The notes: a model not told the origin generated them from the sequence alone. 64,000 nucleotides of DNA from a virus (IMGVR_UViG_2850773344_000009), one strand, 5' to 3'; positions 25,306 through 56,293 are shown, counted from the first letter of the stretch. A program made the numbers and translations.

Positions 25306-25713
25306 TTATTTATTTTCCTCTGGTTTTTTCGGCCACTCTATATTTTTTATATCAACACGCATCAATAGCACCCGATATTTTTTCCATGCCAGTAACAGTT
25401 TCGTTTCATCATCTGTTGCCATATCTAAATCAACCGCATCCTGAAGCGGCGCTATTACATTCGTTGCCTCTGCTATCAGTGCAGATTTCTTTTCATTATT
25501 TATTAAGGCTAATTGTTCTGGTGTTGGAGAAGGACGGTCAACAATGACAGGGTGACCATTCTCACCACAGGTAATCATTTTTGTTACACTCTGCGAATTA
25601 ATCAGTGTTTTCCACTCTGATTCCGAGATTTCCACTGCATCATCAGGAATATTGGTGCCGTGAAATTCAGTCGAATAAAATCCGTTTGTCGATGCAGAAT
25701 AAAAATATGACAT
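25306..25713 (-). CDS. Tail fiber assembly protein (Tfa)
   Basis: C-terminal [15 protein letters not shown]...IEWP motif typical of Tfa chaperones; ATG at 25713. Confidence 0.75.
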
Positions 25714-25717
25714 TTCG

Positions 25718-26368
25718 TTAATATCCCATTGCAATGTAATACGCATCAGCAGATGAACCATATCCTGAACCGGGCGACACTGTAATATCAAATCCAGTGT
25801 TATGGACATTTGTCGCCGATACAGTCGGCTGCCCTGACGCGCCAGTAACTTTTAATGTAACTACGACAGCAATGACTCTTGAGAACGTCATCGGAAACTT
25901 CATCCCGTATGTTGAAGATACATTCGGGGCACCATTCAACTGACCACACTGTAAAATTAATCCAGACGGAAATTTTTGCGCAGCAGCCGTTACGGTATTA
26001 ATTGACGCGAACAGGCTCATATCAGGTATCTGATTCGCCCCTGTACCTACATTCCTTTTAGCTGCTTCTCCCAAACCAAGGTTTTCGAGAGCCGTTTTCA
26101 CCGTGCCATCCGATTTGATATCGCCAAACGGATTCTTGCGGCTTAACAGCAGCGCGCGAAGTGCGGTAAGCAACTGATCGTGCCGCCCCTTCTCCAGGCT
26201 GGCACCGGATGCCTCCACCACGCTGCAAAGCTCCTCCTGCAACATGTCAAAGTAGTCATCATCCAGATCGGTGGCAGGCGTGCCAGTCTGGGGGTTACCA
26301 CGGGTAAAACCGTTCTTACCCGCGCCGAACTTATCCTTCTGCGCGGTTTTCGTGTCTATACGATGCAT
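25718..26368 (-). CDS. Tail fiber protein
   Basis: 216-aa ORF immediately upstream of tfa, downstream of baseplate genes. Confidence 0.55.
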
Positions 26369-26371
26369 GGA

Positions 26372-26956
26372 TTACTCCGGATATTTAAAAATCACATAGG
26401 TATGCGACGGGCAGAGTTTGTTAAGCACACATTCGACAACGGTGTCGCCCCAGATACGCAGCGCGGAATCACAGGGATCGCCACATGTCATCCAGGTGGT
26501 GTTTGTGGCGGCTGGCATGTTGACCTGCCAGTAATACCGCCATTCCGGCACATTCACCGCGTCAGTACAGGCCGATGAGCAGGTGAACGTGCTTTTGTCG
26601 TATCGCGTGATGGTAGCGTCTGGTCTGCCCAGGGCAGCAAGCTGTGCAAGATAAAAATTCTCATTGATGCCGCCCGCCAGGTTAACCTTCGCATCCAGCC
26701 GTTGCTGACGCTGGCGAAGGGTCTGTGTCCCTGCGGGAATACATTCATCCGGCAGACCGCACAGACGCTCCCAGCGGTTTATCAGTTCAGTGGTGGTGCG
26801 CGGATCCAGCTCCCGCATCAGGGCATCCGCACGCTGATGAACGCGGGTTAATGACGGTGCCGCACCGGCAATCGACGGATCGCTGGCTGACCACGCCGGA
26901 CCGGGGGGCAACAGTGCCGACAACAGACGGATGTAATCATCGTTTGTCACGTCCAT
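26372..26956 (-). CDS. Mu gp48-like baseplate/tail protein
   Basis: 194-aa ORF, position after baseplate J homolog. Confidence 0.55.
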
Positions 26957-52166: not shown

Positions 52167-53077
52167 TATCGAATTCCTTTATTCAGTTGCGCCTTGAGCT
52201 TGCGGTACGTCTCTACATCCCCTTTGTTTGCTGCCGCCTCCATCTGCTTTTCAATCGCAGAGATATTTGCAGCAACAGCATGTCCCTGAATGGGTTCATC
52301 AGGTAACGGGGCTTCTGAAACAGGCTTGGCTCGAGGCTTGAGAGTTAAACGTTCTGACAGTCGAGTGAGTTCAATCAGCGCGGATTGCCCGTCCATCGCC
52401 AGCAACTGGCGTGTTTTCTCAGGATTAGCACCAAGGTGATACATGAGAGCGGCGGATTTCTCCGGGAAGAGGCGCATGATGTCGGCACCGACTGCTGGCG
52501 GCACCAGTTGCATGAATGCATCCTCTTTCTCCTGATAGTCAGGGATATTGAGCTTTTCCGCTGCGTCGTAGTGCTTACGGGCCGCCTCGACGTATTGCGC
52601 TGATTGCTGGGTGAACTCCTGAGTTTTGCGACCCTGCTCGGCGACAGCCTGGCTTCGTGCGTCCATAGCCTTGATCTGCCATTCACTGTTTGCCTGCTGG
52701 AAGGCAGCCAGTGCGCGGCTCTGGTCATAGTCGTACTTAGCCAGTGCATCTTCGGAAAGATAATCGTTAGGGTCTGGTTGTTTTGGTAACTCAGGGTTCA
52801 CCCGCAGGTGCTCCGGCAACTCTCCACGCTTAACCGCTTCCATCTGCTGCTCAAGCTCACGCTGGCGTTTGCGTTCGATGCGGCGACGGGCAAATTCAGC
52901 ATTAGTTGCCGGGTCTTGTTTTGGTTTCTCATCGTCTTTCAGGACAATCTCAAAGCCTTCTTCCTGACCTGCGCTGTCGTTGGCATTATCGACAACTAAG
53001 CCATCAGCAGATGCCGCTGCATGATTGCCGGGCAGGGTTAATTCTTCAGAAGCCTGAATGTCGGTGGTTTGGTCCAT
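52166..53077 (-). CDS. Scaffolding protein (P22 gp8-like)
   Basis: 303-aa ORF, acidic, helical; resembles remembered P22 scaffold. Confidence 0.85.
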
Positions 53078-53090
53078 GATTAACTCTCTC

Positions 53091-55256
53091 TTATTGAGGT
53101 GTCTCGGCTACTCCGCCGGAGGGGATTTGAACTTGACGCATAAGATTCGCGAAATCCATGCGTTGTGAATGAGTCTGGTCTGCATCTTTAAGAAGCAGCT
53201 CAGCGTTAGCACGAGCATCTTTGCTGCGCTGTTGCTGGAATTGACCTACGAGCCTGAGGTACTCACGCAGTTCTGCCTGCTTGTCGAGGTCCATATTGTT
53301 GAATATTTCTGCAATCTTCGCGGCGTTGAGTTGGTTTTGGGCTTCAACCTTGGCAGCTTCAACCTGAATCTGCGCCTGTTGGTTCTCTGCCTTGAGCAAT
53401 TCAGCCTGACCTTGCAGAAGGATACCCTGCGCCTGAATTTGCTCTGCTGATGGCTGCTGCGGCTGTTGTTGTGCCTGCTGCACCATCTCCATCTCTTCAG
53501 GTGTTTCTGGTTTCTTCAGCCCCATCATCACCAGTTGCTTGTTCGCGTACTCTCGCATCATCTCGACGCCTTTACCGTCAAGCAGCGTGAAGTATTGCAG
53601 CATCAGCATCTGGAACTCTGGAGTACCTTGCGGAACCTTGGTGAGCAACTCCTGAATCTCTGCGCGGTTCTGTTCCTTCATACTCTGGAAGGATGGCCCA
53701 ACGTCTGTATAGCACTCATATCGACCGCGAATGTCGTTGAGTGTGACCACATTGCCGGACTGGTAATCGACAACTTGCGCATAGAGTTGAACGTCTTTCT
53801 CGCTTCCATCTTCAAGTGTCAGCGTTACATGACGAGGAACGTCATAAATATCGTTGACCATTGAGGCATAAATCTCGCCATCACGTCGCATTGCGGTAGC
53901 CAGGTTATCCTGAAACACGTATGTCTCAAGGTCTGCCCGCATGTTCAGTTGATTGACGGTATCAAAAGCGACCTGACCATTTGCCGCCTGCGCATCCACG
54001 CCAAGACTAGCCACTTCTTTCACTGCGTTGGTGGCAGCCTCAAGCATGTAAGCGTTGGCTTGCGGCACTTCAGGGTTTTCCATGTAGGAGATTGGACCAA
54101 TCGGCAGGTCGTTACCGTTTTCATCGGTCCTGTTCTGCAGATAGTACGGATAGTCATCATTTCCGCCGTACATGTATTCGTAGCCTTCGATTTGCTCAGG
54201 GAAGAAGGTCGGTTTCTTCTTCGGTGACCGAGCAACAATATCGGCGTTGAACGACATAATCATGTTACGAAGGCGTTGACCGTCTTTCGTCAGCCTTACC
54301 ACACCCTCGTAGCACTCCTTGTCACCAGCGAATGACCATTCGCCATACACTGGAACGATTGGAATATGCTCTCCGGCTATCTTCTCGCGGTCTTTCAGTA
54401 TCTGCGTACAGGTGATGATCGACTTATACACACGCCGACGCTTCACCTTGCGCTCTGCTACCTTAATGAATCCACGATTAGCCAGGTCGTCGATGACGTC
54501 TTTGATATCCTGCTGGTAATAGCTGACCGGCTCACCTGTCAGCGGGTCGCGGTAGATGAAGACCTTCTCCTTCTCCTCTTCTACCTCGTAATACTCAGCG
54601 ACGTAGACGACATCATTCGACACCCACGGGAATAGCCATGTATCGTTAGGATTCTGGAAAGATGGCAGGGTATCCGGGTCAATACCGTAATCCTCTGCGA
54701 ACTCTTTCCAGCCATTGCGCGACAAGGCGTTAATCACCGTGCAGTGCTTAGCGTCGCTCTTATCCATCTGCTTGCTGTTGGCGTCCCATATGACGTGTGA
54801 GCAGGCTTCATGGATTGGCAGGCGTCGGATTACCTGATTGTTGCTTGTTGGATCGTTGTCTTCGTACTGCGTGACCAGACGCCATGCACCAACGCCTGAC
54901 TCTATCTGCTCACGAACGCCAACGTTAACGGCAATCTTTGCCGTGTTATGGCGCATATCAGTACGATACATCCCCATCAATACATCGGCTGCATCAGGAT
55001 TAGCGCCGTCTTTGGGTCGGAAGAGAACGTCGACAGGGTTCCGGCGCATCTCTGCGACCAGTTTCCTGACCTCCGGGCGAACAACATCGAATTGTCCGCG
55101 ATATTGCAGGGTAGTGTAGTTTGATAGCCAGTCATCCCATTGCGACACTCGGCTAAAATACAGGTCATTTGTCGCCTCGGTTCTGGCTTCATCGCTCGCC
55201 ATCCAGTCTGCGTCAAACTTACACAGAATGGAATTGAGTCTGTTTTCGTCGGCCAT
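53091..55256 (-). CDS. Portal protein (P22 gp1-like)
   Basis: 721-aa [21 protein letters not shown]... with long C-terminal Gln-rich barrel tail; resembles remembered P22 portal. Confidence 0.9.
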
Positions 55257-56293
55257 TTAAGTTCTCCGTGCGATGGGCCTGATTGGGGCTGGTATCTTTT
55301 TCTCTTTTGGTTTTTTGATGTCGCGCATCATTTTTGCGAAGCGGCGCATCATGTATGCATAGCGAACGGCGGATAGCACGTCGTCGTTAAGCTTGACGAT
55401 TTTCCCGTTTTCATCACGGTGATAGAGGCGGAACTCCTCAAAGAATGGCTCACAGGTATTGAATACTTTGAAGCGACCATCGAGCATCATGTCGCGCAAT
55501 TCAGTGATGCCTGGCTCAACAGCGTTACCGCCATCAGGCCATGTCGCATGCTCCTGCAACATCATAAATCCAGCGTCTGCATACTGCCCTTTGAGCTGCT
55601 CACCGCCGCCCTTCTCGTGCTGGTTTCCATCATGAGGCCATGCGGTTGGCACTTTATGCGCCCATGATTTAACGGCTCCCCACGCCTGAACGGCTGTTTT
55701 TTCTTTCGCCTTCCACACGCGTGAAACGTAGATTGTGTCTGCCTCCTTATCCCACCAAAGCTGAACTTGCGCCTGTGGGTGATCCCATCCGAAATCCATC
55801 CCGCCAATTACGTAGAAGTGATCAGGACACTCGAACGGCTGACACTTAATCGTCTCTTCCGGTATCTGGAAGATTCGACCACTACCCATCGTAGGAATAC
55901 CGCGAGCACGCGCCTCTCTCTCATGCTCGGGATATGATGCGATGATTTGCTCTTTCTGCTCGTCGGTATAGTGCTCAGCGTCATAGATGGTCATGTTGAC
56001 CACTTTCTGCGACTTGCTGGGGTTCTTCAGGAACTTGGTAACAACGTCAGACATCCCCATCAGCGGGGTAAACGTCAGAATTGAGAATTGCCCGTATTTG
56101 TTGGTACGGGTAAGACCTTCGCCATAAATGCTGTATGGTGGCTCTTCGTCAAACCACACGCCGTGGATTGTGTCACCCTGCCAGCGAGCACGGCCTTGCG
56201 AGTATGGCTTGAAGTAGCAGATTGAAATGCCATCTTCAACGCCATCAGCCGTGTGATGCTTAACCAGAAGGTGATCAACAAGGTTCGGAAAGA
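55257..56293 (-). pseudogene. Large terminase (P22 gp2-like), C-terminal ~345 codons; N-terminal ATPase region removed at IS911 junction
   Basis: ORF frame runs into IS911 terminus; no Walker A segment present. Confidence 0.7.

Follow-up and report, generated by a model that had tools for sequence, protein, structure and literature searches.

Two sets of virion genes stand side by side in the 64,000-nucleotide stretch of viral DNA analysed here (IMGVR_UViG_2850773344_000009, hereafter the window), one for a contractile-tailed particle of the SfV type and the other for a short-tailed particle of the P22 type. With a probability of roughly 85%, they are the leftovers of two prophages once integrated in tandem at the tRNA gene thrW, an SfV-type converting phage carrying gtrV and a P22-type phage, which insertion sequences (IS) have disabled and reshuffled; that is to say, the locus is a case of ordinary Shigella prophage decay. 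The window is the reverse complement of CP000266.1 (Shigella flexneri 5b strain 8401) at about 235.8–299.8 kb, and it is the SHI-O serotype-conversion island of that strain, a thrW-linked prophage graveyard. An earlier sequence-only reading had treated both modules as parts of one element; the two integrase copies and the internal attP-type joint described below speak instead for at least two prophages.

The SfV-Type Virion Module and gtrABV

The contractile-tail module, which had been placed at 25306..41414 from the sequence alone, is borne out by the alignment to phage SfI, by 21 full-length proteins and by Pfam. The module and the neighbouring serotype genes are arranged as follows:

25306–40983, minus strand: virion module of the SfV/SfI/SfII type, all genes intact (alignment to SfI and Pfam); the gene run is tail-fibre assembly, fibre, Mu-like baseplate, DNA-circulation protein, tape measure, chaperone, tube, sheath, terminator, connectors, HK97-type capsid, protease, portal and a 60-amino-acid protein
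40995–41414, minus strand: remnant of the SfV-type large terminase gene (terL), last 139 of 577 codons (tblastn and Pfam)
22652–25184, plus strand: gtrA (22652–23014), gtrB (23011–23934) and gtrV (23931–25184), for O-antigen glucosylation, serotype 5 (match to phage SfV)

First of all, 25318–41414 matches SfI at 97.7% identity over 99% of the query (megablast against phage genomes), and SfII, SfIV and SfV align likewise. All 21 SfI virion proteins compared, spanning the run from the 60-amino-acid protein after terL to tail-fibre assembly, are full length and 94–100% identical, without gaps or stops. The Pfam families found in the module are Phage_portal, Peptidase_S78, Phage_capsid, sheath, tube, PhageMin_Tail and DNA_circ_N, and further Mu GpP, Gp45, GP46, Baseplate_J, Gp48 and Caudo_TAP. 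The HK97-type head genes and Mu-type contractile tail genes stand in the SfV order that marks an SfV-group prophage, and the head genes are of the SfI/SfII/e14 allele, not of the SfV allele. Moreover, phage SfV (20655–5787) gives a continuous match of 97.6% that includes gtrV, and gtrA-gtrB-gtrV adjoins an attP core whose sequence is that of the thrW 3′ end, as is the case in the SfV group (99.4% to SfI, 97.6% to SfV). The serotype-setting genes gtrABV are the sole part of the SfV-type remnant with a documented function. The SfV-type module was found only with 8401-like genomes.

At its upstream end, terL is cut at 41414/41415, and the left inverted repeat of an IS600 element (TGAGGTAGCC...) starts at 41415. 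Residues 439–577 of SfI TerL map to 41414–40998 (tblastn), and Pfam TerL_nuclease is represented only by profile positions 185–284 of 286, which means that part of the nuclease domain is left. From the full cos-packaging set of an SfV-group prophage (HNH protein, small terminase gene terS and full-length terL), only this portion of terL has survived; neither terS of either type nor the SfI HNH protein has a tblastn match in the 64-kb window.

The P22-Type Virion Module

The second claim drawn from the sequence alone, a short-tailed P22/Sf6-type particle encoded at 43635..56293, was confirmed by alignment to Escherichia phage APC_JM3.2 (Lederbergvirus) together with Pfam, so that the profile searches once proposed as a check agree with the structural assignments in both modules. 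Its features, in which ORF stands for open reading frame, are:

43635–45365, minus strand: gp16-like ejection protein carrying an SLT domain; 573 of 911 residues remain, followed by three codons encoded by the IS (tblastn against APC_JM3.2; Pfam SLT and Phage_P22_gp16)
45366–55256, minus strand: P22-type virion genes, all intact, namely gp20, gp7, gp14, needle with knob, gp10, gp4, a small ORF, coat, scaffold and portal
55257–56297, minus strand: P22-type terL remnant, residues 153–499 of 499 (tblastn and Pfam)

In the alignment, 43648–56300 falls into three blocks with 94–98% identity (megablast), about 97% overall, and portal, scaffold, coat, gp4, gp10, gp14, gp7 and gp20 are full length and 95.7–99.7% identical to their APC_JM3.2 counterparts. 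The needle is a different allele from that of APC_JM3.2, with 282 amino acids and a knob domain, and the small ORF is 84% identical. Pfam recognises P22_portal, Phage-scaffold, P22_CoatProtein, P22_Tail-4, Phage_stabilise, Phage_tail_NK, DUF2824, P22_gp7, Inj_translocase and SLT+P22_gp16, and the families PF16510, PF09306, PF11651, PF11650, PF11134, PF16532, PF25688, PF16928 and PF26808 stand in the canonical order of a P22-like virion, with gp16 truncated.

The structural ORFs had been described as otherwise intact, which holds for nearly all of them; the exception is the gp16-like ejection protein, cut after residue 573 of 911, whose last 338 residues are lost at the left end of the third IS600 copy at position 43647. 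The truncated protein, which runs 3 codons into IS600, serves as a junction-specific probe and matches CP000266.1 and a few near-identical genomes. Both terL genes were also said to be cut by IS elements; this is correct for IS600 at 41415, and the second break needs to be moved by a few bases, from 56294 to 56297/56298, where the first 152 codons are lost and a 9-nt IS911 end remnant lies at the break. Pfam Terminase_6N begins here at profile position 68 of 215, with the N-terminal third of that (ATPase) domain lost. There is no tblastn match in the 64-kb window to the P22-type terS, to the small ORF upstream of it or to the tailspike, so the headful pair (terS and full-length terL) and the tailspike of a P22-like phage are not to be found.

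Taken with the flanks that were read, in which neither a small terminase nor a tailspike appears either (the left flank, as far as proA/pepD, holds no terminase domain), these results uphold what had been said of both genes, and the comparison with complete phages sizes the losses at 438 and 152 terL codons and 338 gp16 residues. With only truncated terL genes and no terS in the window, the statement that the locus is unable to package DNA on its own stands as well, and neither module would be expected to package DNA with the genes of this locus.

As a separate observation, the gp10/gp4 region (48400–50700) holds about 95 of the 102 differences between the 8401 copy and that of CP026765.1, a genome with the same remnant, and the synonymous divergence in gp10 is about 0.2. 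The gp10/gp4 allele seems to have been acquired by recombination at some point after the IS911 insertion in terL that both copies share.

IS Elements and the Joints

The IS joints are made up of the following elements:

1–800, minus strand: IS600 copy 1, partly in the window, left inverted repeat at 800, complete in CP000266.1
41415–42251, plus strand: IS600 copy 2, nucleotides 1–837 only (alignment to reference IS600)
42252–42257, minus strand: TAACGT, that is, nucleotides 85–87 of IS600 copy 3 plus the ACG target duplication of IS629; head-to-head fusion point (direct reading)
42258–43563, minus strand: IS629 within IS600 copy 3, with the intact ACG duplication on both sides (terminal inverted repeats)
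43564–43647, minus strand: IS600 copy 3, nucleotides 84 to 1, its left inverted repeat abutting the cut gp16 gene
56298–57556, minus strand: 9-nt IS911 left-end remnant TGAAGTGGC (56298–56306), then complete IS911 (56307–57556)

The 2.2 kb between the modules consist of IS600/IS629/IS600 fragments only, with no phage or host DNA. The stretch 41415–43567 matches plasmid loci annotated as IS629/IS600, and an 85-nt inverted copy of 41415–41499 is 100% identical to it. The inter-module joint is an illegitimate head-to-head fusion of two IS600 copies, one of which lay in the SfV-type terL and the other in gp16. This anatomy bears on the idea of a single hybrid phage or element that natively carried two virion modules and was struck twice by IS afterwards. 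The short distance between the modules and their common direction would suit such a phage, but it is very improbable: nothing except IS fragments fused head to head fills the interval, the two modules run collinear with complete genomes of two different phages, the locus holds integrase twice and an attP-type joint in its interior, 2457T, 2002017 and others carry the P22-type module but not the SfV-type one, and none of 5,426 complete E. coli genomes spans the joint (megablast of 39000–46500, which shows only that the source is not among them). An assembly artefact, by which this IS-rich region would have been mis-joined in the reference, deserves just as little credence; IS repeats are notorious for causing misassembly, and the 2006 genome was put together from Sanger reads, yet the same module-IS-module joint with its ORFs recurs in CP026799.1, a complete genome obtained independently, and on a JGI contig of 102 kb.

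The other joints point to recombination between IS copies in the two-prophage locus. Positions 1–801 are the reverse complement of 41414–42214 at 99.6%, and 801–41414 is thus bracketed by inverted IS600 copies with their left ends facing inward. By the duplication criterion, IS629 is a simple IS3-family insertion, whereas IS600 copy 1, with AAA on one flank and GGG on the other and without a 3-bp target duplication, and IS911, with GGC and GCG on its flanks and likewise without duplication, are not; IS600 copies 2 and 3 are truncated. IS600 copy 1 and IS911 are therefore recombinant copies and not simple insertions, and since both lack target duplications, the gene order is attributed to IS recombination. 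In CP026765.1, the left end of IS911 abuts the same terL base (checked base by base) in the opposite orientation; in the window, IS911 has been flipped or re-inserted at its own end. The 9-nt copy of the IS911 left end (56298–56306) sits directly before the right end of the resident IS911.

The Early Region, the attP-Type Joint and Probable Tandem Lysogeny

To the left of gtrA lies a further block of phage genes, here called region A, with the attachment core at its end:

801–22404, no strand given: early and lysis half, assigned below to the P22-type prophage (matches to APC_JM3.2 and HK542/mEpX2)
Genes of region A (Pfam labels): KilA-N/Rha-like, 1253–1774, minus strand; Rz, 1976–2413, minus strand; frameshifted endolysin, 2413–2887, minus strand; holin, 2871–3194, minus strand; Q, 3863–4486, minus strand; nin genes, DnaB-type helicase and cII; integrase, 21230–22390, plus strand
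10138–11484: IS4-family transposase gene beside cII, inside region A
14763–15535: IS1 copy inside region A
22405–22450, no strand given: intact attP-type core of 46 bp, a region identical to the thrW 3′ end, between int and gtrA (SfI alignment)

Region A shows patchy matches of 92–99% to APC_JM3.2 from its coordinate 10216 downwards, and also to HK542/mEpX2. Three lines of evidence, namely the identity of Q and holin, the fit of a gap and the match of the integrase, lead us to assign the early region 801–22450 with the window integrase to the P22-type prophage and not to the SfV-type one. Firstly, the Q and holin proteins are 100% identical to those of APC_JM3.2. Secondly, the APC_JM3.2 homology of region A stops at coordinate 10216, where IS600 copy 1 starts, and that of the P22-type virion module begins at 11472; the gap of 1,255 bp between these coordinates corresponds exactly to one small ORF, terS and the first 152 codons of terL. 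Thirdly, the int that adjoins thrW in CP054892.1 and GCA_030646415.1 shows 100% identity across 1,091 nt with 21360–22450, the bulk of the window int together with the core, and in these two genomes an IS911-bounded deletion is followed by gp14-gp7-gp20-gp16-mnt-tailspike-gtrCBA, 99.3% identical to window 43648–47947. The endolysin gene of region A (2413–2887) is frameshifted, with residues 1–105 in one frame and 88–158 in another, while its neighbours Q and holin have the 100% match to a viable phage. The view that region A and the SfV-type module form one circularly permuted phage was dropped after the 100% int match to P22-type prophages.

The core itself is informative as well. The stretch 22387–23896 is 99.4% identical to SfI 21294–19787, which spans the annotated SfI attP core (21231–21276), gtrA and gtrB, so int, the 46-bp core and gtrA follow one another without interruption, which is the arrangement of a free phage; a prophage integrated singly has int and gtr at its two ends (PMC3306764). 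On the left of the window, CP000266.1 continues with the complete IS600, a 359-nt 3′ fragment of an integrase gene, the core within an intact tRNA-Thr gene (thrW), proA and proB. The int fragment and core beside thrW are 98.8% identical to window 22032–22450 and inverted relative to the window copy, and they end in the same core (12612–12657 of locus L013). Tandem lysogens at thrW are recognised by just such a pair of integrase copies with an attP-type joint inside the locus; it is the intact int-core-gtrA joint together with the second, inverted int fragment beside thrW that leads to this conclusion. Tandem integration of two converting phages, SfI and SfX, at thrW has been shown experimentally (PMC3306764). 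As for the attachment sites expected of tandem prophages, an attL-type joint, formed by thrW and the int fragment, is present besides the internal one, and no attR lies in the window or in the flanks read. The SfV-type phage comprises gtrABV, the virion module and, as we infer, the int fragment beside thrW. This fragment has only about 71% DNA identity to the int of SfV and SfI. An arrangement with the gtr end of the prophages adjoining thrW was also considered and dropped, since the thrW-int fragment in 8401 and relatives shows the int end there.

Related P22-type prophages with mnt/arc, a tailspike and their own gtrA-gtrB-gtr (421 amino acids), followed by an att joint and a different integrase, were seen at 5333–10925 of locus L044 (GCA_050990125.1) and at 14086–18801 of locus L041. 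P22-type converting phages in tandem at thrW seem to be common in these genomes.

Decay Versus Retention

The sequence-only reading had left recent decay and retention side by side as explanations for the intact ORFs; decay is favoured by a divergence of about 0.1% and by lesions in a relative, and retention finds no such backing. Firstly, the P22-type remnant is widespread. In 2457T (S. flexneri 2a), 2002017 (Xv) and others, a truncated terL (about 350 amino acids or less) lies beside IS911 and gp16 is called with 576 amino acids, 2,711 indexed assembly blocks, for the most part contigs of 10–20 kb, contain the exact 721-amino-acid portal protein, and gp7, gp14 and gp20 of 2457T differ from the window proteins by 1–6 residues. 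The P22-type remnant therefore predates the spread of these S. flexneri lineages. Secondly, the remnant is decaying elsewhere: in CP026765.1 the portal gene is interrupted by an in-frame stop and the coat gene by a frameshifting 1-bp deletion, and in other genomes most of the P22-type remnant is deleted. Thirdly, from terL to coat (5.6 kb, 50700–56306), the 8401 and CP026765.1 copies differ at 7 positions, about 0.1%, with the derived changes mostly on the CP026765.1 side and at most two changes in the 8401 copy over the shared 5.4 kb. Since the divergence from the common ancestor is so small, intact ORFs in 8401 need no selection; they would be expected by chance, with too little time for point mutations, and not as a sign of use.

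The surroundings of the modules lead in the same direction. The Q/late operon (Q at 3863–4486, holin, frameshifted endolysin, Rz and KilA-N) runs into IS600 at 800, and both modules are cut off from this, the only Q/late-operon start identified in the window. Upstream of the SfV-type module, the neighbour is the outward-facing IS600 copy 2, and the nearest lysis genes are opposite in direction or frameshifted; upstream of the P22-type module, beyond IS911, lie an island fragment and an opposite-facing lysis cassette.

Retention, by which one or both terminase-less modules would have been kept by selection as a tailocin, as a source of particles for a satellite or for gene transfer, or as a recombination reservoir for incoming phages, is improbable on these data. 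It would accommodate the 21 SfV-type ORFs compared and the ten P22-type ORFs, all intact, the persistence of the P22-type remnant in many S. flexneri assemblies, and the exchange of the gp10/gp4 patch since the shared IS911 insertion, which indicates that the remnant recombines with other phages. Against it, the relative with the same remnant carries a nonsense codon in portal and a frameshift in coat and other strains have deleted most of the remnant, the low divergence makes selection unnecessary, and neither module has a lysis cassette or Q-type regulator upstream in the right orientation, the endolysin of region A being frameshifted besides. A tailocin is disfavoured in particular, as the tail module is still joined to head genes, unlike in known tailocin loci; the head genes (37712–40801) are contiguous with the tail, which is not the layout of an R-type tailocin. 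Slightly less credible still is the more far-reaching idea that the modules are not inert: the P22-type set, present in thousands of S. flexneri assemblies, may be used in trans or as a reservoir that reshapes incoming P22-like phages, at which the replaced gp10/gp4 patch hints, or the SfV-type tail cluster may act in a tailocin-like manner on SOS induction. Neutral, recent decay, not retention, is the economical reading.

Filler and Flanking Regions

To the right of IS911, the window ends with two features that belong to neither virion module:

57557–62760, plus strand: unrelated filler, consisting of an integrase/Rha/DUF6971 island fragment (57557–60331) and a lambdoid lysis cassette
Within 57557–62760, plus strand: genes of the filler lysis cassette, namely holin-region DUF1327, endolysin (61212–61745), Rz and a 172-amino-acid ORF
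62761–64000, minus strand: IS2-type (IS3 family) element running off the window

The filler points away from both virion modules, and it is present in 2457T, where it lies between two inverted IS911 copies, and deleted in 2002017. An island with integrase, Rha, DUF6971 and a 373-amino-acid protein is very widespread and, in other sequenced genomes, has lysS and recJ nearby; its DUF6971 protein occurs in 1,394 indexed blocks. The exact-sequence look-up of the 405-amino-acid ORF at 58650–59867 gave no match, probably since the called start differs. The filler was considered as the lost lysis region of the SfV-type prophage and rejected, its left part being an unrelated island and its lysis cassette generic lambdoid.

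Beyond the IS2-type element, related genomes have type VI secretion remnants, dnaQ and rnhA. In L013 (CP000266.1 288079–308600) and in two other loci (L018 and L020), proA-proB-phoE-crl-frsA-gpt-pepD run opposite in direction to dnaQ/rnhA and the type VI secretion remnant, in comparison with the map of E. coli K-12. From this opposite direction, the prophage block is therefore placed at one end of a large IS-bounded chromosomal inversion common to several Shigella genomes.

Proposed History

The two-prophage origin can be set out in five steps, of which the first and the third are shown by the data. In the first, a P22-type phage integrated at thrW, where an IS911 insertion in terL cost it its terminase function and an IS600 insertion removed the end of gp16; both lesions are seen in other S. 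flexneri lineages. In the second, it is supposed that an SfV-type gtrV myovirus integrated in the 8401 lineage at the thrW-proximal att site, producing a tandem pair with an attP-type joint, so that the starting order would be thrW-[SfV-type]-attP-[P22-type]. In the third, IS600 cut the SfV-type terL, and two further IS600 copies lie within the integrase nearest thrW and beyond the end of the P22-type lysis genes. In the fourth, these two further copies, inverted relative to each other, may have recombined, flipping the block int/early (P22-type)-attP-gtr-tail-head (SfV-type). In the fifth, a second inversion, which ended inside two IS600 copies with an illegitimate head-to-head join, would have brought the P22-type virion genes beside the SfV-type ones. 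Deletions beside the IS elements presumably took away the tailspike, the two terS genes and the 5′ portion of each terL.

Several points weigh against this account. The last 340 bp of region A are also common to HK97-type lambdoid siphoviruses, e.g., mEpX2, and on this shared part alone region A could have preceded an SfV-type terminase. The modules are called silent from gene order only. The order of events is rebuilt from one genome and fragments of relatives, and a different succession of inversions and deletions could lead to an identical map. The right flank of 8401 was read up to window position 64256.

Relation to Known Systems and Implications

In Nie et al. (2006), SHI-O of strain 8401, which is this very locus, is described with gtrA, gtrB and gtrV and about 15 kb of SfV sequence at about 300 kb on the chromosome, and IS elements are blamed for interrupted phage sequences of this sort in Shigella genomes. 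In strains 301 and 2457T, SHI-O carries an SfII remnant. The P22-type remnant, the internal attP-type joint and the head-to-head fusion of IS600 do not appear in the searched passages of Nie et al., and a literature text search pairing P22-like with strain 8401 returned no match. The SfV-type remnant and the island are already published; the present analysis divides the pieces between two tandem thrW prophages and sets out how the IS joints are built.

Among known phages, the first remnant resembles SfV, SfI and SfII, which are lambdoid myoviruses with an HK97-type head, a Mu-type tail, gtrABC beside attP/int and thrW as target, and 22387–41414 is collinear with them at 97–98% identity. Unlike them, it lacks terS, the first 438 terL codons, HNH/cos, its own lysis genes, Q and the early region, and it is not an inducible phage. 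The second resembles Lederbergvirus (APC_JM3.2 as the closest, IME10 and HK620-type E. coli phages, and Sf6 for the needle knob) in its order terL-portal-scaffold-coat-gp4-gp10-needle-gp14-gp7-gp20-gp16; it differs from P22-like phages in that terS, 152 terL codons, 338 gp16 residues, immI and the tailspike are gone and its early half lies beyond the virion genes of another prophage. The arrangement as a whole is like that of the laboratory tandem lysogens at thrW, with SfI at attL upstream of resident SfX (Sun et al. 2011), where an att site lies between the gtr of one and the int of the next. In contrast to the SfI/SfX tandem, both members are defective here, and the block bearing the joint is inverted relative to thrW.

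The importance of these results is slight beyond bookkeeping. For annotation, the two modules should be labelled as remnants of different prophages, with 801–22450 tied to the P22-type remnant, and prophage-finding tools are likely to merge the locus into a single hybrid prophage. For the biology of Shigella, the locus is a worked example of how IS elements kill and reshuffle tandem prophages while the serotype cargo gtrABV is spared.

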